Assembly: GCA_034005635.1 (NCBI GenBank)
Contig: JAVEUJ010000001.1
Span: forward strand, 1 to 47,331
Direction of reading: 5' to 3'
DNA: 47,331 bases
Origin: Kiritimatiellia bacterium
GTDB lineage: Bacteria > Verrucomicrobiota > Kiritimatiellia > CAIQIC01 > Lenti-01
Numbering within the stretch: position 1 is the stretch's first letter; every line of letters starts with the position of its first letter. Under the pieces are notes generated by a model. The model searched no databases. It was not told the DNA's origin and worked only from the letters and a program-made list of their open reading frames with translations. Below, piece by piece: positions 29,675 to 40,058 of this stretch. Both the position numbers and the translations under genes were made by a program.

Positions 29675-29857
29675 ATGGGGTCGTTGGTTTTGTTAATGAA
29701 AGGCCCGTATTAAACGGTGGACCTGCTCCCGAGTAAAGCGGAAAGCTTGGGTGAGCGGGGCCAGCCCACAGCTTGTCCGCCAAGAAAAAGACTTTGCGGG
29801 GCGTGGCAATCCGGTAGAGTGCCGCGGAACCAACCCTATTTTGAACAGGAGATTTCG

Positions 29858-30646
29858 ATGCTCAGAACGAAACGTTTCGACTATGTCCCCTTTGAACAGG
29901 TCCATCTGCACCCATCTGTGGCCAACCACCGGCCATTGCAGGAGGCCAAAGTCGCTCACTTTGCGGAGGACATTTTGCAAAACGGGCTATTGGAACCCAT
30001 CGTAGTGTGGGAACGCAATCCCGGCGAATACTTCCTGGTTGGCGGGTTCCATCGCCATGCGGCCATTCGGCGGATCCGAACAAAGAATCCGGGCTATTTC
30101 GATCGCATCGATGTACGGGTCGTCCAGGGTGATCTGGATGAAATCCAGGCACTGAACCTCAAGTTGAACGCCGACCGTCTCGATGCGCGCATCACGGATT
30201 ACTTCGATGCTATTTTGTTTATGTCCAACGCCAACTGGGACACAGGGCGCATTGCACGCTTTCTGGACAAGACCGAATCCTGGATTGAGGATATTTTACG
30301 TTACGCTCCGGGAATGGCCCCGCGGGTCCGGCATCTGCTGGAGCAGAACAAAATCAGTTGGAGCAAGGCCAAAGCTATTGGCAAAGCCGTGATGTCAGCG
30401 CCGCCCGGCGAAGAACGCGCGGTGCTGGAAGCTCAACTGGAGGCGCTCCAAAAGCCCGCGGAACCGTCTGCGCCCCGACCGCTGACCTACCGTGACGCCG
30501 TCAAGCGCTTAAAGAAGCGCGACGAGACATTCACAGTTTCCGGTCCTGATGTGCTGGCGCTTTTGCAGGTGGTCCGCTCCAAAACAGTTCCCCCTGAAAC
30601 CATCGAAAGGGTCCGTCGTGCCTTTCCCAGCCTGCTGGATTGCTAG
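29858..30646 (+). CDS. ParB/Srx-fold N-terminal domain protein with probable HTH
   Basis: Start at MLRTKRFDYVP (ATG 29858, AGGAG upstream). The string LLEPIVVWERNPGEYFLVGGFHRHAAIRRI matches the ParB/sulfiredoxin fold, but with GGFHRH in place of the ParB GERRxR box. The segment WDTGRIARFLDKTESWIEDILRYA looks like an HTH. Confidence 0.6.
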   Translation: MLRTKRFDYVPFEQVHLHPSVANHRPLQEAKVAHFAEDILQNGLLEPIVVWERNPGEYFLVGGFHRHAAIRRIRTKNPGYFDRIDVRVVQGDLDEIQALNLKLNADRLDARITDYFDAILFMSNANWDTGRIARFLDKTESWIEDILRYAPGMAPRVRHLLEQNKISWSKAKAIGKAVMSAPPGEERAVLEAQLEALQKPAEPSAPRPLTYRDAVKRLKKRDETFTVSGPDVLALLQVVRSKTVPPETIERVRRAFPSLLDC

Positions 30647-34929: not shown

Positions 34930-36024
34930 TTAGAGGATTGAATCCCGGCTCGGTTGCTCACGTAATTTGGCCAGCAGTGCTTTGATGTTCTGGGCATGCG
35001 CTTTGTCGCAAACCAAGGTGACACCGTCCGCTTGAACAACCACAAGGTCACGAACGCCCACAAGTGCCGTCAGGCGCCCTTCGCTTACGATAATATTGCG
35101 GGTGCTATCGATCGCGGCGCAATCGCCCTGGATAGCATTGCCCTGCTCGTCGATTGGCAAATGCGCCTCCAGTGCCGGCCAGGAGCCGACGTCGTCCCAC
35201 GGGAAACGGCCCTTGCAGATGACGATATTGGCTGCCTTTTCCATCACGGCATAGTCAATGGATATCTTGCGCAGATCCGGAAAATCTCGTTCCAATGCCT
35301 GATGAAATTCTGCGTCATCTGCGCAGGCGGCCCAGACATCCATTCGCTCGGCCAGCGTCGGCTGGAACTGGGCGAAGGCGCTTTGGATGCTGCGAATCGA
35401 CCAGATAAACATCCCGGAATTCCAGGCATAGCGCCCGGTTTGCAGATAACCGGTGGCGGTCTCCCGGTCTGGTTTTTCGACAAAACGGCGTACGCGAAGA
35501 AATTCGATGTCGCCGCACGTTTTCCAGGACTCGCCCGCCTCGATATAGCCATAAGCGCTGCTGGGCTCTGTCGGTTCAATGCCGATGGTCAAGAGGACAT
35601 CCTCTTCCGCGCAAAGGGCCATTCCGCAGGTCAGGGTCTCGCGGAATACCGGCAAATCGCCGATAATGTGATCAGCGGTCAGTACCGCAAAGACGGCGTT
35701 GGGATTGCGTCGTTTGATCCAGGCCGCGCCCGCGGCAATGGCGGCGGCCGTATCGCGTCCAACCGGCTCGCCCAGCACGCCCACGGGACTCCCCTCCCCC
35801 AGCAAGTCTCGAATTGGCGCGACCAGCGCCGCGTTGGTTACGATCAATATCCGTTCGGGCGGCACTACGCCGCTAAGGCGTTCGACCGCCTGAACAATCA
35901 GCGGCTGACCACCGGCCAGGGCGAGCATTTGCTTGGGACGGCGCGCTGTACTCAACGGCCAAAACCGCTCGCCCTTGCCACCGGCCATGATCACGGCATA
36001 GAAATTTTCACTACTCATATTCAT
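34930..36024 (-). CDS. manC: Mannose-1-phosphate guanylyltransferase (nucleotidyltransferase only, no PMI domain)
   Basis: 364 aa. N-terminal [17 protein letters not shown] sugar-nucleotidyltransferase loop and overall ManC/CpsB-like length. An alternative ATG lies at 36018. Confidence 0.8.
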
Positions 36025-36031
36025 TCACCAC

Positions 36032-36156
36032 TTTTCCACACTATGGAAAACTTTCTTCCACAGCATGGAAGATTTGATTGATACTTTTCCACGCTATGGA
36101 AAATAGTTGGCTCGGTTTTCCACACCATGGAAGATTTTCTTCCATACTGTGGAAAA
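36032..36156. promoter_or_regulatory. Array of five phased 19-bp palindromes (core TTCCA-N5-TGGAA)
   Basis: S1 36032-36050 TTTTCCACACTATGGAAAA. S2 36054-36072 TCTTCCACAGCATGGAAGA. S3 36085-36103 TTTTCCACGCTATGGAAAA. S4 36116-36134 TTTTCCACACCATGGAAGA. S5 36138-36156 TCTTCCATACTGTGGAAAA. Centre spacings are 22/31/31/22 bp. The repeat itself is certain; its function is unknown. Confidence 0.75.
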
Positions 36157-36184
36157 CGGGGGCTGGCGAGTATCGCGCCAGACC

Positions 36185-38593
36185 CTAGAAAACGACCGGT
36201 TGCATCCATTCGGGCAGATCGGCGGGGTCCACCGGGACTGCTTCGGCGGCCACGGGTTTCTTGACTTTTTCGGTCTGTTGTTGCTCTTGGCGCGCTTCGG
36301 CTTGCATCTGCTCAATTTCGCGCTGCATTTGGGCAATGCGTTCTTCGGCTGCTTGGCGAGTGGCCTGCTCTTCTGCGATGCGAACGGCGGCCTCTTCTGC
36401 GGCATTGCGTTGGTGCTCGGTCACGTCCTGGGCAATGCGTAGGGCTTCCGCCTGCTGGGCTTCTTTTTCGGCTAAGCGAGCCCTTTCTTCGGCGGACGCG
36501 GCGGCAACCCTGGCTTCGGCTTCCTGCTGGATCCGTTGCAGGTTCGTCTGGCGCTGGGCTTCAGCCTCTGCCAGAGCCGCCTCCGCAGCGGCTTTGCGGG
36601 CTTCAAACTCGAGCACGCGCTGCTCAGTTTCTTCGCGTAACTGCCGTGCCTTTTCTTCCTGCTGGGCCATGATTTCGGCCTGACGCACGGCTTCCAACGC
36701 TTCCTTTTCCTGCTGGGCCAGTGCGCGCTGCTGTTCGGCTAACGCCTTCTTCGCTTCTGCCTCGGCACGGGCGGCGTCTTGCTTGGCCTTCCATTCGGCT
36801 GCCTTCTGGGCGGCCTCTTCCTCGCGAGCTTGGAGAGCTTCGGCCTTCTGCCGAGCGAGTTCAGCCTTGCGAGCTTCAGCGGCCGCTTTGTCTTGCTCGG
36901 CGATCAGGCGATCAGCTTCAGCTTTTGCCTCTCGTTCGATTGCCTGCTGCTGAGCGAGTTCTGCAGCGGCGGCCTTCTTTTCTTCAGCGGCCAGACGTTT
37001 GGCTTCAATCTTCTCTAGGCGGGCCGCTTTTTTGTCCGCAGCGGCTTGGCGCTTGGCTTCGATCTTGGCTAGACGGGCAGCTTTTTTCTCTTCGGCTGCT
37101 TGGCGATTGGCTTCAATGTCGGCCAATCGTTTTTCCTCTTTCAAGCGCGCTTTTTCGTCTTGTTGCACTTGAGCGATTTCTGCCTTGGTCGGCAGGGTGC
37201 TAACCAACGGGACTATATCGGGCTGAGCATCTGTCATCGGCACCACCAACAGGCTGGTGGGCGGCACAGCAAGTGGCTCTTCTTGCGCCATGTCCCCCTC
37301 CCCTTCCGGGAGCAGGGATTCTAGCATCGGCTCAGCCGGAATTCCCGGCTCGAGTTCTGCTTCCAGAATGGGCGTATCAACTTCTATATCGGATTCCGGC
37401 AGAATCACCTCGTCCGACTGGAATTCTGTGACGGCTAGTTCAGGAGTCAGCGCATCTGGCACGTCCAGTTCGGCGGCGACCTCTGCTTCAACGAGAGCGG
37501 GTTCATCGGCCTGCGATGGGATCACGTCCACTTCCGGGACGGGGGGTTCTTCTATGGGAAGGGACGCGATTTGCTCCGCTTCTTCAGTGGGCGGTACCTC
37601 CGGGATATCCCCTTCACTATCCGTTTCGATCGGGAGTGGGTCATCCGCTTGGGCGAGATCGACCACCGTTTCAGGCTCAACGGCTTCAGGCAAAATTTCG
37701 GCAGGGACTTCCGCCAGTTCCTCGACAAGTTGGACGGGGGATTCTTCCTGAATCGCCGCTACATCCGTCGTCGGCAGATCCGAGGATTTCGGGACGGATT
37801 CGGCTGCGTCACCCTCGACCGGAACGGGTTCAGCCAGGGCCTCAGCGACGGGTTCGACCGCTGCCGCTTCCTGGGCGATCCGGGCCGATTCGTCCAACAC
37901 CGCCTGCTTTTGCAGCAGGGCTAAGACCGCGCCAATCATCAATTCATCGGCGGTCTTGCCCTGAGCGCGCAATTCGCCACGAAGTGCATCGGCGACAATG
38001 TGCTCGGCAATGCGCTGGCCCCCGTCGCCCTGAGACTCGATGAGCTGTGCTACCGTCACATTGCTTTCCGCCGCCAGTTTGATCAAACTGTTTTGGGCGC
38101 TAAGCAGCAGCGATTGCATCGCTGGTTCTGACAGTGCTCCCGCCTGCGCCAGAACATTCTGCTCCGGGTGCAGCATGTCAATCCAGTGCTCCGTCATGTC
38201 GGTCGTGGTTTGAACCGTGTAGCATGAATCGACAATGACATAGTACCGCCGTGAAATTTGGTCGACCGTGCCGGCAAAGGAATAGGTAACCCCCTCCTTC
38301 AAAGATGCAAATTTAGGGGCCATATCTTCGAGCACCCAGACGGTGCCAGCCGCCTTCAAGCGCATAGGCAAATAGGTTTTGCGGTCGAGCCGCCGCGCGC
38401 GCTTGCCGGGCAGGGATTCCAGCGTATCGGAAAACAGGATGGCACGAGCCCAAGCGTTTTGGGGCGTACGCAAGAGCGAGTTCGCTTCAATTTTGACATA
38501 GGAATCCGGTGCGCTGGCTGCAACCGCCCAGGAGAGGCTTCCCGCCACGATTCCGGCCGCCACGACCAAGGCCCACTTCATATGATTTATCAT
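36185..38593 (-). CDS. Large exported protein: N-terminal globular region, acidic Pro/Glu-rich spacer, long charged Ala/Glu/Lys/Gln helical (TolA-domain-II-like) C-terminal region
   Basis: Start chosen at MINHMKWALVVAAGIVAGSLSWAVA, which gives a signal/anchor sequence (the track ORF begins at 38674). About 250 aa are non-repetitive. A PE-rich segment follows (EPVAEALAEPVPVEGD...). About 330 aa of EAKRQAAEEKKAARL-type sequence then runs nearly to the C-terminus. No enzymatic motif recognised. Confidence 0.7.
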   Translation of the reverse strand: MINHMKWALVVAAGIVAGSLSWAVAASAPDSYVKIEANSLLRTPQNAWARAILFSDTLESLPGKRARRLDRKTYLPMRLKAAGTVWVLEDMAPKFASLKEGVTYSFAGTVDQISRRYYVIVDSCYTVQTTTDMTEHWIDMLHPEQNVLAQAGALSEPAMQSLLLSAQNSLIKLAAESNVTVAQLIESQGDGGQRIAEHIVADALRGELRAQGKTADELMIGAVLALLQKQAVLDESARIAQEAAAVEPVAEALAEPVPVEGDAAESVPKSSDLPTTDVAAIQEESPVQLVEELAEVPAEILPEAVEPETVVDLAQADDPLPIETDSEGDIPEVPPTEEAEQIASLPIEEPPVPEVDVIPSQADEPALVEAEVAAELDVPDALTPELAVTEFQSDEVILPESDIEVDTPILEAELEPGIPAEPMLESLLPEGEGDMAQEEPLAVPPTSLLVVPMTDAQPDIVPLVSTLPTKAEIAQVQQDEKARLKEEKRLADIEANRQAAEEKKAARLAKIEAKRQAAADKKAARLEKIEAKRLAAEEKKAAAAELAQQQAIEREAKAEADRLIAEQDKAAAEARKAELARQKAEALQAREEEAAQKAAEWKAKQDAARAEAEAKKALAEQQRALAQQEKEALEAVRQAEIMAQQEEKARQLREETEQRVLEFEARKAAAEAALAEAEAQRQTNLQRIQQEAEARVAAASAEERARLAEKEAQQAEALRIAQDVTEHQRNAAEEAAVRIAEEQATRQAAEERIAQMQREIEQMQAEARQEQQQTEKVKKPVAAEAVPVDPADLPEWMQPVVF
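36956..37117. repeat. 3 x 54-bp in-frame tandem repeat inside the 829-aa gene
   Basis: GGCTTC(A/G)AT landmarks at 37001, 37055 and 37109 (54-nt period). The units encode IEANRQAAEEKKAARLAK / IEAKRQAAADKKAARLEK / IEAKRLAAEEKKAAAAEL. Confidence 0.7.
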
Positions 38594-38654
38594 CCCGCCA
38601 CCTTTTCTAAAAGAATGCTCCGATATATAGCCATCCCCACCGCTGAAATCAAGT

Positions 38655-40058
38655 CTATCCTTGCCCTTTGCCATCTGTTTTGGCTTCGTTGCCGGCCTCG
38701 GCGCTAGCGGCGGGAGTCTGTGCCGTGCGTGCCTCGCGGCGCAGGTGGTCCCAGTGTTCCATCCGCTTGCGAATCACCTCTTCATAGCCTTGGGATACCG
38801 GTTGATAGTAGACCTTATCAGTCGGCATATATTCCTGATCGACAAAATGCCCTTCAAAATCATGTGCATATTGGTAGCCGACATGACCCAACTCCTGTGC
38901 GCCCCGCTTGCTGCCGGTGCTGCGCAAGGGTTTGGGGACGGGCAAGGTCCGGCCTTCCTTGATATCCGCCAAAGCCGCCTCAATACCCAGATAGGCGGCA
39001 TTGCTCTTGGGAGCCGTGGCCAGATACGTCGTGGCCTGGGCTAGCGCGATGCGCGCCTCCGGCATGCCGACAAAGTCGACCGCGTGCAGAGTTGCCACTG
39101 CGACGGTCAATCCGCGCGGATCCGCATTGCCAATATCCTCGCTGGCCAGAATGACCAGACGGCGGGCAATGAAGCGCGGATCCTCACCCGCATACACCAT
39201 CTTAGCCAACCAATAGAGCGCGGCATGGGGGTCCGATCCGCGCACACTCTTGATGAATGCCGAAATGGTGTCGTAGTGGCCATCCTCGTCGTGATCGTAA
39301 AGAATGGCCTTCTTCTGGATGCTTTCCTCCGTCACCGCGCGGGTGATGTGGATGCGGCCATCCGGGTCCGGAGCGGTTGTCAGCGCCGCGATTTCCAACG
39401 CGTTGAGCGCGCGGCGGGCATCTCCCTCACACACTGCAGCCAGGTGGTCCATGGCATTGTCATCCATCTGGATTTTGAGATGCCCGAGTCCTTCCGGGCG
39501 AACCAGTGCCCGTTGCAACAGCGTACGGATGGCTTCCACTCCCAGGGGTTCCAATTGAAAGACTTGGCTGCGCGATACCAGCGGGTTGTTGATGAAAAAG
39601 AACGGGTTGTGCGTGGTCGCGCCAATCAGGGTGACGGCCCCCTCCTCTACGTACGGCAAAAGGACATCCTGCTGGGCCTTGTTGAAGCGATGGATTTCAT
39701 CGATGAACAAAATGGTCTCGCGCCGCGATACCACCCGCCGCTGGCGCGCCGCCTCGAGTGATTTGCGCAAACCAGCCACATTTGATAGCACACCGCTGGA
39801 GCGATCGAAGGCGCGCTTGGTGACGGATGCGATGACCTCCGCCAAGGACGTCTTGCCGCAGCCGGGCGGGCCGTAGAGGATAATGCTAGAAAGTCGATCT
39901 GCCTCGATGGCCCGCCGTAGCAGCTTGCCTGGCCCCAGCATGTGGTCCTGCCCTGCAATATCTTCCAACACCTGCGGACGCATCCGGGCCGCCAATGGGC
40001 GGTGCATAGGTGGTGCGTCTGGTGAAATATCTATCGGGCTTTCAAATAAGTCGCTCAT
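38655..40058 (-). CDS. rarA: Replication-associated recombination protein A (AAA+ ATPase RarA/MgsA)
   Basis: Start at MSDLFESPID (ATG 40058). Walker A GPPGCGKTS, Walker B LFIDEIHRFNK, and a MgsA C-terminal region (YLAKMVYAGEDPRFIARRL). Confidence 0.9.
   Translation of the reverse strand: MSDLFESPIDISPDAPPMHRPLAARMRPQVLEDIAGQDHMLGPGKLLRRAIEADRLSSIILYGPPGCGKTSLAEVIASVTKRAFDRSSGVLSNVAGLRKSLEAARQRRVVSRRETILFIDEIHRFNKAQQDVLLPYVEEGAVTLIGATTHNPFFFINNPLVSRSQVFQLEPLGVEAIRTLLQRALVRPEGLGHLKIQMDDNAMDHLAAVCEGDARRALNALEIAALTTAPDPDGRIHITRAVTEESIQKKAILYDHDEDGHYDTISAFIKSVRGSDPHAALYWLAKMVYAGEDPRFIARRLVILASEDIGNADPRGLTVAVATLHAVDFVGMPEARIALAQATTYLATAPKSNAAYLGIEAALADIKEGRTLPVPKPLRSTGSKRGAQELGHVGYQYAHDFEGHFVDQEYMPTDKVYYQPVSQGYEEVIRKRMEHWDHLRREARTAQTPAASAEAGNEAKTDGKGQG

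Follow-up and report, generated by a model that had tools for sequence, protein, structure and literature searches.

A helically phased palindrome array upstream of manC belongs to a mosaic repeat family dispersed in Kiritimatiellia genomes

The window analyzed here is a stretch of 47,331 nucleotides from the genome of a Kiritimatiellia bacterium (contig JAVEUJ010000001.1). A 160-bp spacer in it, between an 829-aa gene and manC, is filled over 125 bp by an array of five 19-bp palindromes (S1 to S5, positions 36032-36156) with centre-to-centre distances of 22, 31, 31 and 22 bp. When the letters were read directly, the palindromes, their coordinates, their spacing and their share of the spacer were exactly those given by an earlier sequence-only reading of this DNA. 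The features at the locus are listed below in the order of their positions; units and linkers carry no strand.

29717-30646: ParB/Noc-like orphan gene, 5.4 kb from the array
34930..36024, strand -: manC, mannose-1-phosphate guanylyltransferase (Pfam NTP_transferase 9e-40, plus the ManC beta-helix), downstream of the array
36032..36050: unit S1, TTTTCCACACTATGGAAAA, the one closest to manC, whose first ATG is 7 nt away and whose probable start (36018) is 13 nt away
36051..36053: short linker CTT, 3 bp, which sets the 22-bp spacing between S1 and S2
36054..36072: unit S2, TCTTCCACAGCATGGAAGA, with a symmetric T>C / A>G variant in both outer arms
36073..36084: long linker TTTGATTGATAC, 12 bp, 31-bp spacing, without kinship to the family consensus linker ATTTTTCGCGAT
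36085..36103: unit S3, TTTTCCACGCTATGGAAAA
36104..36115: long linker TAGTTGGCTCGG, 12 bp, 31-bp spacing, likewise without kinship to the consensus linker
36116..36134: unit S4, TTTTCCACACCATGGAAGA
36135..36137: short linker TTT, 3 bp, 22-bp spacing between S4 and S5
36138..36156: unit S5, TCTTCCATACTGTGGAAAA
36160..36185, strand -: GC-rich hairpin (RNA fold), directly 3' of the stop codon of the 829-aa gene
36185..38674, strand -: 829-aa gene, upstream of the array, without a Pfam or NCBIfam family

The core TTCCAY-N3-RTGGAA, with at most one mismatch allowed, matches five times in the 47-kb window, and all five matches are S1 to S5. The number expected by chance is 0.41 (sd 0.62), and none of 100 shuffles contained five matches. 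The earlier statement that there is no second copy of the palindrome thus holds within the window; it does not hold in the clade, where we found at least 100 further loci.

As for the flanking genes, manC probably starts at its second ATG (36018), which is likelier than the first because relatives begin with M-x-x-E-N. The 7 nt previously reported between S1 and the manC ATG hold for the first ATG. The product of the 829-aa gene has an N-terminal membrane anchor, an acidic Pro/Glu-rich linker and a Lys/Ala/Glu coiled coil. The hairpin that follows the stop codon of this gene looks like a terminator stem, and the sole T-run 3' of it is an arm of S5. It is not kept in the manC spacers of relatives and lies outside the repeat family described below.

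The gene order RarA, 829-aa gene, manC, rubredoxin is conserved in relatives. Comparison of the orthologous manC spacers bore out the earlier reading in that the palindromes are retained: five syntenic species with ManC identities of 77-100% have 1, 2, 3, 2 (plus one degenerate) and 5 units, and in 5/5 of them the last unit lies 11-13 nt before the manC ATG. Units are absent at manC in remoter relatives, where ManC identity is 60-65% and synteny is different. The S3 unit (TTTTCCATAGCGTGGAAAA in the manC sense) also occurs in the manC spacers of loci L124 and L126, with a near-copy in L125, and the ancestral unit of the manC spacer is probably S3. Retention is not confined to manC, since the spacer upstream of pheS contains arrays in four genomes and one other gene pair likewise in four. 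Arrays grow and shrink through gain and loss of whole units.

We then consider the extent of the family across genomes. The scan covered one genome per species, the source genome lying outside it, and recorded pairs of cores 4-30 bp apart. It returned at least 117 such stretches, the chance expectation being about one by our own estimate. Among the stretches listed, 100 fall in 29 species-level metagenome-assembled genomes (MAGs) of Kiritimatiellia, Verrucomicrobiota or 'Lentisphaerae', with up to nine array loci per MAG among the matches listed. The MAGs with the repeat family come from gut, rumen, digester and sediment. An array comprises 2-8 units of the form TTTTCCA-YRSYR-TGGAAAA. The array beside manC is one copy of this family, a mosaic repeat dispersed across the Kiritimatiellia clade. 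For about 12 arrays the end of a contig is no more than roughly 100 bp away, which is expected because repeats break assemblies. In approximately 109 kb of unselected flanking DNA there was one further array; this low density outside the selected loci suggests that arrays number tens rather than hundreds per genome.

Viral contigs bear similar tandem palindromes as well, but yielded no candidate of use. One such set is situated just upstream of a terminase large subunit, and it is probably a packaging site.

The unit itself is tightly defined. Across 358 sites the arms do not vary, C or G occupies the centre without exception (358/358), and the flanks of the centre obey Y-R / Y-R. A variant unit, GGTTCCA...TGGAAAA, belongs to JAFTAH01. 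Each arm has 7 bp and is AT-rich, in a host genome of 58% GC. Outside the 19-mer the information content is at most 0.4 bits per position, and there is no tag. If the centre base, C or G, is taken to set the polarity of a unit, adjacent units have the same orientation in 157 pairs and opposite orientation in 61, and polarity shows neither alternation nor correlation with gene direction.

Spacing between units is restricted to a few values. The spacing scan admitted 19-45 bp, and the counts are 98 for 22 bp, 91 for 31 bp, 14 for 30 bp, 13 for 32 bp and 7 for 42 bp. They correspond to three linker classes: A/T linkers of 3 bp (CTT/AAT/AAA) with a 22-bp period, linkers of 11-13 bp with a 30-32-bp period, and a 23-bp linker containing a GC hairpin (ATCCCGC-N4-GCGGGAT) with a period of about 42 bp. 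The linker between S1 and S2 is of the most frequent 3-bp type in the family (CTT/AAG, 35/97). The 11-13-bp linkers have the consensus ATTTTTCGCGAT or AACGGGCCGAT; roughly two thirds of the 12-bp linkers share ATTTTTCGCGAT, across genomes, and arrays L043, L048 and L118 are made up of near-identical 31-bp units. Even so, the 47 linkers without kinship to the consensus linker still give a spacing of 30-32 bp only.

To derive genomic contexts, we masked the arrays and called genes with a codon log-odds model, and key cases were checked with Pfam. A greedy longest-ORF caller had placed 64 arrays 'inside' ORFs, since stop codons are scarce in the units and a GC content of 58% makes for long antisense ORFs; GC3 alone discriminated poorly. 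Array-bearing spacers are co-directional in 68% of cases, divergent in 16% and convergent in 16%, against a background of 71/13/15 at the same loci. Gene starts facing arrays (82) and gene ends facing them (79) are similarly numerous, and their distance distributions are alike. Pfam matches on both flanking genes confirmed convergent placement in 5/5 cases tested, and a divergent case (thiL-like/pheS) was also confirmed. The neighbours of the arrays are unrelated housekeeping genes.

In at least three coding genes an array forms an in-frame insertion. The TatD/YcfH homologue at locus L073 has an 11-residue insertion relative to PDB 1yix precisely at a two-unit array, a dihydroorotase-like gene (L019) contains an array in which four units span 93 bp (31 codons), and an ABC permease gene (L021) contains a three-unit array. 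A search for genes that accompany the arrays gave no DNA-binding family among the small proteins beside them, no DNA-binding gene recurrently adjoining them, and nothing recurrent among genes with arrays on both sides.

Taken together, the invariant arms, the C or G centre and the spacing that is kept regardless of linker sequence favour phased binding of a dimeric protein on one face of the DNA. The explanation that we propose, and to which we give about an even chance, is a dispersed mosaic repeat family in which each unit is bound by one dimer of an abundant, putative sequence-specific DNA-binding protein. The centres of the two half-sites would be 10 bp apart, and periods of 22, 31 and 42 bp would put every dimer on the same helix face, so that the dimers would be able to contact each other and coat the DNA cooperatively. 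The resulting nucleoprotein block would span 40-240 bp. At manC it would extend from the end of the upstream gene up to the manC ribosome-binding site and could act as a barrier, as an insulator or by promoter occlusion. Such an effect would belong to the element in general and would not amount to a circuit dedicated to manC. The data show the dispersed family, its geometry and contexts, the copies inside genes and the retention at manC; the binding, the identity of the binder and its physiological effect are our inference.

A more far-reaching version, which we put forward tentatively and consider somewhat doubtful, is that the arrays are chromosomal landing pads of a novel architectural DNA-binding system of Kiritimatiellia. 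A putative, abundant dimeric protein would recognise TTTTCCA-YRSYR-TGGAAAA and polymerise on one DNA face at tens of loci, forming transcriptional or topological barriers or nucleoid-organising points. The arrays themselves would evolve as mobile mosaic repeats, able to enter even coding sequences. The proteins of the ParB family bind palindromes dispersed over a replicon, and sopC is a phased tandem array; the half-sites are TGTTTCAC in parS and ATTTCCC in the Noc NBS. Among the sites of this family (parS, Noc NBS, F-plasmid sopC, RK2 KorB OB), the halves of parS and NBS resemble the Kiritimatiellia half-site TTTTCCAC. Unlike parS, the Kiritimatiellia unit has three additional central base pairs and occurs in arrays, not as single sites. 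The orphan ParB/Noc-like protein encoded in the window is, speculatively, a candidate binder.

Alternatively, the arrays may be a selfish mobile or expanding repeat without host function, its units or 22/31-bp modules copied by a putative transposase, by slippage or by gene conversion, with the regularity of spacing merely mirroring the length of the copied module. In-frame copies inside genes, together with shifts in copy number in close relatives (from one to five units at the orthologous manC spacer), would fit such an element, and so would the arrays of near-identical 31-bp units and a placement among spacer types that looks random. Moreover, consensus ATTTTTCGCGAT linkers are common to several genomes, and therefore copying of a 31-bp unit, instead of selection, may account for part of the regular spacing. 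Yet we consider this explanation unlikely, as inheritance of a module would have to account for the 47 unrelated linkers that hold 30-32 bp, for a 22-bp spacing that is nearly exceptionless, and for three linker classes that all approximate integral helical turns. The same spacers are also occupied down to 77% ManC identity. Direct reading found no target-site duplications at either the window copy or the L073 copy, and no transposase family is recurrent near arrays: all-against-all clustering of 619 neighbouring proteins gave only orthologous housekeeping contexts and no transposase. No RAYT adjoins an array in the array-bearing loci searched; the REPs that flank the one weak RAYT match (L038:3899-4540) are of a different kind, GC-rich and GTAG-tagged.

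Another possibility is a REP-like element acting at the RNA level, with hairpins that would end transcripts, stabilise or process them, or influence translation of the gene downstream; at manC, a hairpin would lie 11-13 nt before the start codon, a distance that is constant in five species. The palindromes do fold as RNA, and the whole manC spacer reaches -76.6 kcal/mol (z = -9.7 vs shuffled controls), so that such a role is conceivable. One unit scored as terminator-like, and the outer arm positions show weak co-variation. However, the single-unit hairpins are weak (-4.5 to -7.1 kcal/mol), and the arms are conserved as sequence and not merely as pairing, compensatory variants being almost absent. 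At positions +/-2 the bases even anti-covary, with pairing observed 167 times vs 194 expected under independence. There is neither an excess at the 3' ends of genes (79 vs 82) nor strand polarity with respect to genes, arrays are present in divergent spacers too, and linker steps of about one DNA helical turn would be meaningless for RNA. When Rfam covariance models were applied to the manC spacer, the best matches scored 15.1 and 13.4 bits, nowhere near the respective gathering thresholds (100 and 40). Overall, an RNA-level function is improbable, and the weak single hairpins, the lack of pairing co-variation at +/-2 and the lack of strand bias also speak against the leader-RNA hairpins listed in the sequence-only reading.

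The option favoured in that reading was an operator array for a dimeric protein over the manC promoter. Its geometrical part, dyad symmetry and helical phasing, stands and is stronger over 29 genomes; its specificity for the manC promoter does not. Palindromes of comparable design are known from the ARG boxes of ArgR and from NrdR boxes, which are 16-19 bp long and 2, 3 or 4 helical turns apart; the dimers bound to them lie on one DNA face and interact, and the operators are in the promoters of one regulon. The Kiritimatiellia palindromes are similarly phased in whole helical turns but, unlike ARG and NrdR boxes, are placed regardless of promoters. A transcription factor for manC, or for a regulon including manC, would be consistent with the retention of at least one unit in the manC spacer of five species. 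Against this, the motif is found beside unrelated housekeeping genes, as frequently next to the ends of genes as next to their starts, inside coding genes, and in convergent spacers, which count against an operator because promoters are not expected there. The scatter over many unrelated intergenic sites is the very observation that the sequence-only reading had named as telling against it, and it means that the array is not a manC-specific switch. The operator or regulon interpretation is therefore largely refuted, and we assign it a very low probability.

Equally little credence is due to a datA/DARS-type cluster of DnaA boxes by which DnaA would be titrated or recycled. DARS sites contain head-to-head DnaA boxes, and the array resembles DnaA-box clusters (datA, DARS, B. 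subtilis DBCs) in being intergenic and in containing a good DnaA box, TTTTCCACA. Three exact copies of this 9-mer are present where they had been placed before; it fits TTWTNCACA and is the commonest half-site 9-mer of the family (230/716). Nevertheless, these are only 32% of the half-sites, TTTTCCACG, TTTTCCATA, TTTTCCATG and TTTTCCATT are frequent too, about one third of the half-sites have T at position 8, and only about half have A at position 9. Thus, unlike in DnaA-box clusters, most half-sites violate the box, and a strict, obligatory dyad with an invariant C/G centre is foreign to DnaA boxes. Tens of arrays per genome, some of them inside genes, are far too many loci. In the window, TTWTNCACA is not enriched (3 found vs 2.07 expected). 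Among the loci examined, no array is linked to dnaA/oriC: tblastn with an approximate E. coli DnaA query found no dnaA in 1.06 Mb of array-bearing loci (about 100 arrays), and near the array the local cumulative GC skew reaches a weak maximum instead of a minimum. The centromere- or iteron-like site, also proposed earlier, is contradicted by the many loci per genome and by their position beside housekeeping genes.

Among known kinds of elements, a dispersed mosaic repeat of the BIME/RPE type is nearest to the array family; REPs and BIMEs (bacterial interspersed mosaic elements) are those of Enterobacteria and Pseudomonas, and RPEs are Rickettsia palindromic elements. Like REPs, the unit is short, palindromic, multi-copy and mainly extragenic (358 units, about 100 loci, 29 genomes); like BIMEs, the arrays are mosaics with a few fixed linker lengths that have their own motifs; and like both, they include occasional intragenic copies and vary in copy number among relatives. 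BIMEs bind the host proteins IHF, gyrase and Pol I (PMC2817692, PMC3333891). There are also clear differences. REPs are defined by a conserved tetranucleotide tag, GTAG or CGTC, that borders the palindrome on one side (PMC3733652), whereas the Kiritimatiellia unit has no such tag, and its AT-rich 7-bp arms differ from the GC-rich stems of REPs. REPs are found predominantly downstream of coding regions (PMC3733652), in contrast to the absence of any 3'-end preference here. The units of BIMEs alternate in orientation (PMC2817692), whereas those of Kiritimatiellia are mostly direct. Finally, neither REPs nor BIMEs share the periods of whole helical turns whatever the linker, or the use of one unit common to 29 species.

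RPEs are palindromic repeats that can be located in frame in protein-coding genes, where they add a peptide segment to an otherwise conserved protein (PMC3733652, PMC10969869), and they have been reported to be CGTC-tagged (PMC3733652). The in-frame arrays in the TatD/YcfH, dihydroorotase-like and ABC permease genes are similar to RPEs in this respect. RPEs, however, are single elements of about 100-150 bp, whereas the Kiritimatiellia element is an array of untagged 19-bp units and is mostly intergenic.

A full-text literature search found TTTTCCACA only in primers and HIV sequences, and a search for palindromic repeats of Kiritimatiellia returned only mentions of CRISPR. GTAG repeats have been described in the PVC superphylum, including Opitutus terrae, but their unit is different (PMC3733652). 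The family thus appears to be an undescribed dispersed repeat of a poorly studied PVC class. In practical terms, its recognition spares the locus mis-annotation as a manC regulator site or as a DnaA/oriC-type element, and it draws attention to repeats that break assemblies and to read-through ORFs that can mislead gene callers. Biologically, several traits that tend to occur apart come together in the family, namely BIME-like mosaics, RPE-like in-frame insertions, operator-like helical phasing and a single unit conserved across 29 species. If a dedicated binder exists, the arrays supply both the consensus and the spacing rule by which it may be found.

The spacer upstream of manC in the window contains the five 19-bp palindromes (units S1 to S5) claimed in the sequence-only reading, and direct reading reproduced their coordinates exactly. 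Re-reading also bore out the centre-to-centre distances of 22, 31, 31 and 22 bp and the extent of the array, 125 of the 160 bases of the spacer. The genes on either side are both encoded on the minus strand.

34930-36024, minus strand, manC, the downstream gene (NTP_transferase and ManC beta-helix)
36032-36050, palindrome S1 (direct reading)
36054-36072, palindrome S2 (direct reading)
36085-36103, palindrome S3 (direct reading)
36116-36134, palindrome S4 (direct reading)
36138-36156, palindrome S5 (direct reading)
36160-36185, GC-rich hairpin after the stop codon of the 829-aa gene (RNA fold)
36185-38674, minus strand, 829-aa ORF, the upstream gene (searched against Pfam and NCBIfam)

The 47-kb window has five matches to the core TTCCAY-N3-RTGGAA at up to one mismatch, compared with 0.41 expected by chance, and none of 100 shuffled windows reached that number. 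All five belong to the manC array, in agreement with the claim that the window holds no second copy. The true manC start (window 36016-36024) is probably the second ATG (36018) rather than 36024, judging by relatives, which begin with M-x-x-E-N. Between the last palindrome and the manC start lies a GG-rich, Shine-Dalgarno-like stretch. The 829-aa protein fell into no family of Pfam or NCBIfam. It combines a membrane anchor at the N terminus with a long, acidic linker rich in Pro and Glu and a Lys/Ala/Glu coiled coil, and is TolA-like in appearance. Its gene sits between rarA and manC in every relative (L068, L123-L126 and L128; L numbers denote loci from other genomes, with coordinates local to each locus).

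We scanned a collection with one genome per bacterial or archaeal species (596 Gb) for two cores 4-30 bp apart. This revealed at least 117 stretches, compared with about one expected by chance according to our own estimate. Among the matches listed, 29 species-level MAGs account for 100 stretches; their labels are Kiritimatiellae, Verrucomicrobiota or ‘Lentisphaerae’, and the richest of them has at least nine separate array contigs. ManC homologues assign the window to Kiritimatiellae. About a dozen of the listed arrays come within ~100 bp of the end of their contig, a position expected of repeats, which break assemblies. Unselected flanking DNA (~109 kb) contained one further array and ~6% of 8-kb loci a second one, frequencies from which we estimate tens of arrays per genome. 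Full-text literature searches turned up no account of a repeat of this kind in these bacteria.

The consensus of 358 units is TTTTCCA-Y-R-S-Y-R-TGGAAAA. The arms are invariant or nearly so, and the central base, which the search pattern had left free, is C or G in every unit. Arrays contain two to eight units, mostly in direct polarity as judged by the central base. The spacing scan admitted any distance of 19-45 bp, yet spacing is strongly quantised: the short class comprises 22 bp (n = 98), 21 bp (n = 6) and 23 bp (n = 0), the middle class 31 bp (n = 91), 30 bp (n = 14) and 32 bp (n = 13), and the long class ~42 bp (n = 7). The corresponding linkers fall into three classes. The 3-bp linkers are A/T-rich, chiefly CTT/AAG. 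Among the 11-13-bp linkers, about two thirds of the 12-mers are ATTTTTCGCGAT-like in different genomes; the 47 linkers unlike this consensus, a group to which both 12-mers of the window belong, nonetheless give a spacing of 30-32 bp only. The 23-bp linker with the conserved GC hairpin ATCCCGC-N4-GCGGGAT recurs in different genomes as the mosaic's third module. The five-unit layout of the window (22-30/31-31-22) was found again in L040, L050, L068, L084 and L119. In JAFTAH01 (GC 0.69) one outer arm is G/C-rich (GGTTCCATGGCGTGGAAAA), an asymmetry identical in all copies; three arrays lie inside 3-4 kb there, flanking genes on both sides, one of which encodes an ATPase_2 plus ArsR-type HTH protein.

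L006:2645-2902, L009:3434-3588, L098:543-771 and L115:3093-3330, units spaced ~42 bp apart with the 23-bp GC-hairpin linker
L075:1319-4498 and L091:4080-6265, arrays of the JAFTAH01 variant

To characterize the genomic context of arrays, genes were called by a codon log-odds model with arrays masked; calls without a Pfam check are approximate. Of the spacers with arrays, 68% are co-directional, 16% divergent and 16% convergent, compared with a background of 71, 13 and 15% in the same loci. Gene ends face arrays about as often as gene starts do (79 versus 82), at nearly identically distributed distances (medians of 53 and 55 bp, respectively). All five convergent spacers tested were confirmed by Pfam matches on both flanking genes (e.g. 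Na/Pi cotransporter versus PhoU, adenosine deaminase versus ferredoxin), and a sixth separates DNA polymerase III delta' from DUF2238 in L126. The divergent spacer between a thiL-like gene and pheS is filled end to end by eight units. The downstream neighbours are unrelated housekeeping genes (pheS, ddl, IF-2B family, ABC transporter parts, aconitase, ligase, trpA), with no enrichment of transcription factor, transposase or replication genes, and unit polarity does not correlate with gene direction.

The gene order RarA, 8xx-aa protein, manC, rubredoxin is conserved in relatives. Their manC spacers contain one unit in L123 (89% ManC identity), two in L124 (83%), three in L125 (79%) and two plus a degenerate one in L126 (77%), compared with five in the window. 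In all five species the last unit lies 11-13 nt from the manC start codon. Unit TTTTCCATAGCGTGGAAAA, identical to S3, is common to the spacers of the window, L124 and L126, and among strains of the same species the spacer is identical. More distant relatives (ManC identity 60-65%, other synteny) lack units altogether in the 21 kb covered for each. Arrays also occupy the pheS upstream spacer in four genomes (L094, L104, L115 and L116, with 3, 3, 8 and 4 units) and the spacer of a second orthologous gene pair, likewise in four (L018, L035, L052 and L118). These occupied orthologous spacers with differing unit counts indicate that elements persist at given positions through long divergence, with unit number changing.

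Certain arrays belong to the reading frames of real genes. A two-unit array (L073:5604-5644) encodes FSTAWKKSFHTMEN within a TatD/YcfH hydrolase, an 11-residue insertion relative to E. coli YcfH (PDB 1yix) in an otherwise collinear alignment (E = 7e-52). A four-unit array of exactly 93 bp, or 31 codons, lies within a dihydroorotase-like amidohydrolase (L019:4921-5013), and a three-unit array separates the two Pfam domains of an ABC permease (L021:4386-4457). In this respect the arrays resemble Rickettsia palindromic elements and some intragenic REPs, for which in-frame copies within genes have been described (PMC3733652, PMC10969869).

The closest known kind of repeat is REP/BIME (repetitive extragenic palindromes/bacterial interspersed mosaic elements), but several defining features fail. 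TTTTCCA units lack the GTAG or CGTC tag that defines REPs (PMC3733652), do not alternate in orientation as BIME units do (PMC2817692), and their arrays show no excess at 3' ends. No association with RAYTs (REP-associated Y1 transposases) was found in the loci examined. We therefore class the TTTTCCA repeat as a distinct form of dispersed palindromic repeat, outside the REP superfamilies. One genome has both: in L038, GC-rich REPs that end in CTAC/GTAG (GGGCTCAGCAAGCTGAGCCCCTAC; L038:3860-4730) stand to either side of a RAYT-like ORF, a separate, conventional REP system beside the TTTTCCA arrays.

L038:3899-4540, minus strand, RAYT-like ORF (weak tblastn match, E = 1.3e-4; no Pfam match)

What might such arrays do? 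Half-site centres lie 10 bp apart within a unit, the distance from one unit to the next is 2, 3 or 4 helical turns irrespective of the linker sequence, and conserved recognition reaches into the central YRSYR. We read these features as the mark of a dimeric protein of helix-turn-helix type that contacts successive major grooves on one face. ARG-box and NrdR-box pairs are known to have the same geometry, and the arrays resemble them as phased palindromes. On these features, the arrays are most likely phased platforms for the putative binding of an abundant protein, carried on a BIME-like repeat that spreads and changes size. The chief rival is a merely selfish repeat, its spacing inherited from copied 22- and 31-bp modules. 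Consensus linkers shared between genomes and the intragenic copies speak for it, whereas constant spacing across unrelated linkers and the long occupation of the same spacers argue against it.

A purely RNA-structural role, including the leader hairpins suggested earlier, fits poorly. Single-unit hairpins are weak (-4.5 to -7.1 kcal/mol), and it is the arm sequence rather than pairing that is kept: positions +/-2 are paired in 167 units, fewer than the 194 predicted by independence. Arrays show neither 3'-end nor strand bias and no Rfam family match, and the ~10-bp linker step is meaningful only for double-stranded DNA. Nevertheless, pairing between neighbouring units gives the manC spacer as a whole a very stable fold (-76.6 kcal/mol, z = -9.7), and the transcribed spacer may thus have some RNA-level effect. 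A cluster of DnaA boxes is improbable. TTWTNCACA matches just 32% of half-sites, since about one third have T at position 8 and no more than about half have A at position 9; over the whole window this pattern is not enriched (3 versus 2.07 expected), and no dnaA homologue was found in 1.06 Mb of array-bearing DNA. Cumulative GC skew over the window (1-47331) has a weak maximum at ~33-35 kb, then declines, with no minimum at the locus, a profile confounded by gene strand and too local for calling a terminus. The reading favoured originally, an operator array serving the manC promoter alone, does not stand up to its own refutation test, as the motif is dispersed among unrelated genes. With many loci in each genome, the arrays cannot be a centromere or an iteron.

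Tandem TTCCAY-N3-RTGGAA palindromes with other outer bases, spaced 20-22 bp, also occur in other phyla and phage contigs.

L007, L015, L055, L076, L079 and L107, Bacteroidales/Prevotella
L041 and L074, proteobacteria
L082, Streptomyces (29 bp spacing)
L130 and L133, viral contigs

The three copies in L130, directly upstream of a gene for the terminase large subunit, may constitute a packaging site. Given these occurrences, a protein family of wider distribution may recognize the core. Within the window, a speculative candidate binder is encoded by an orphan, divergent ParB/Noc-like gene with no adjoining parA, syntenic in L124 and L126.

29717-30646, plus strand, ParB/Noc-like gene (NCBIfam Noc model, 1e-5)

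The L124 orthologue aligns with Spo0J (PDB 1vz0) through the helix-turn-helix. The candidacy stems from the half-site TTTTCCAC, which resembles half-sites of both parS (TGTTTCAC) and the Noc site (ATTTCCC).

If the arrays are binding platforms, each putative dimer would bind successive major grooves on one DNA face and neighbouring dimers would make side-by-side contacts; the repeat itself would spread and change size as BIMEs do. Bound protein at manC would then extend from the end of the upstream gene through to the ribosome-binding site, and could block read-through or occlude the promoter. Such an effect would be generic to the element.
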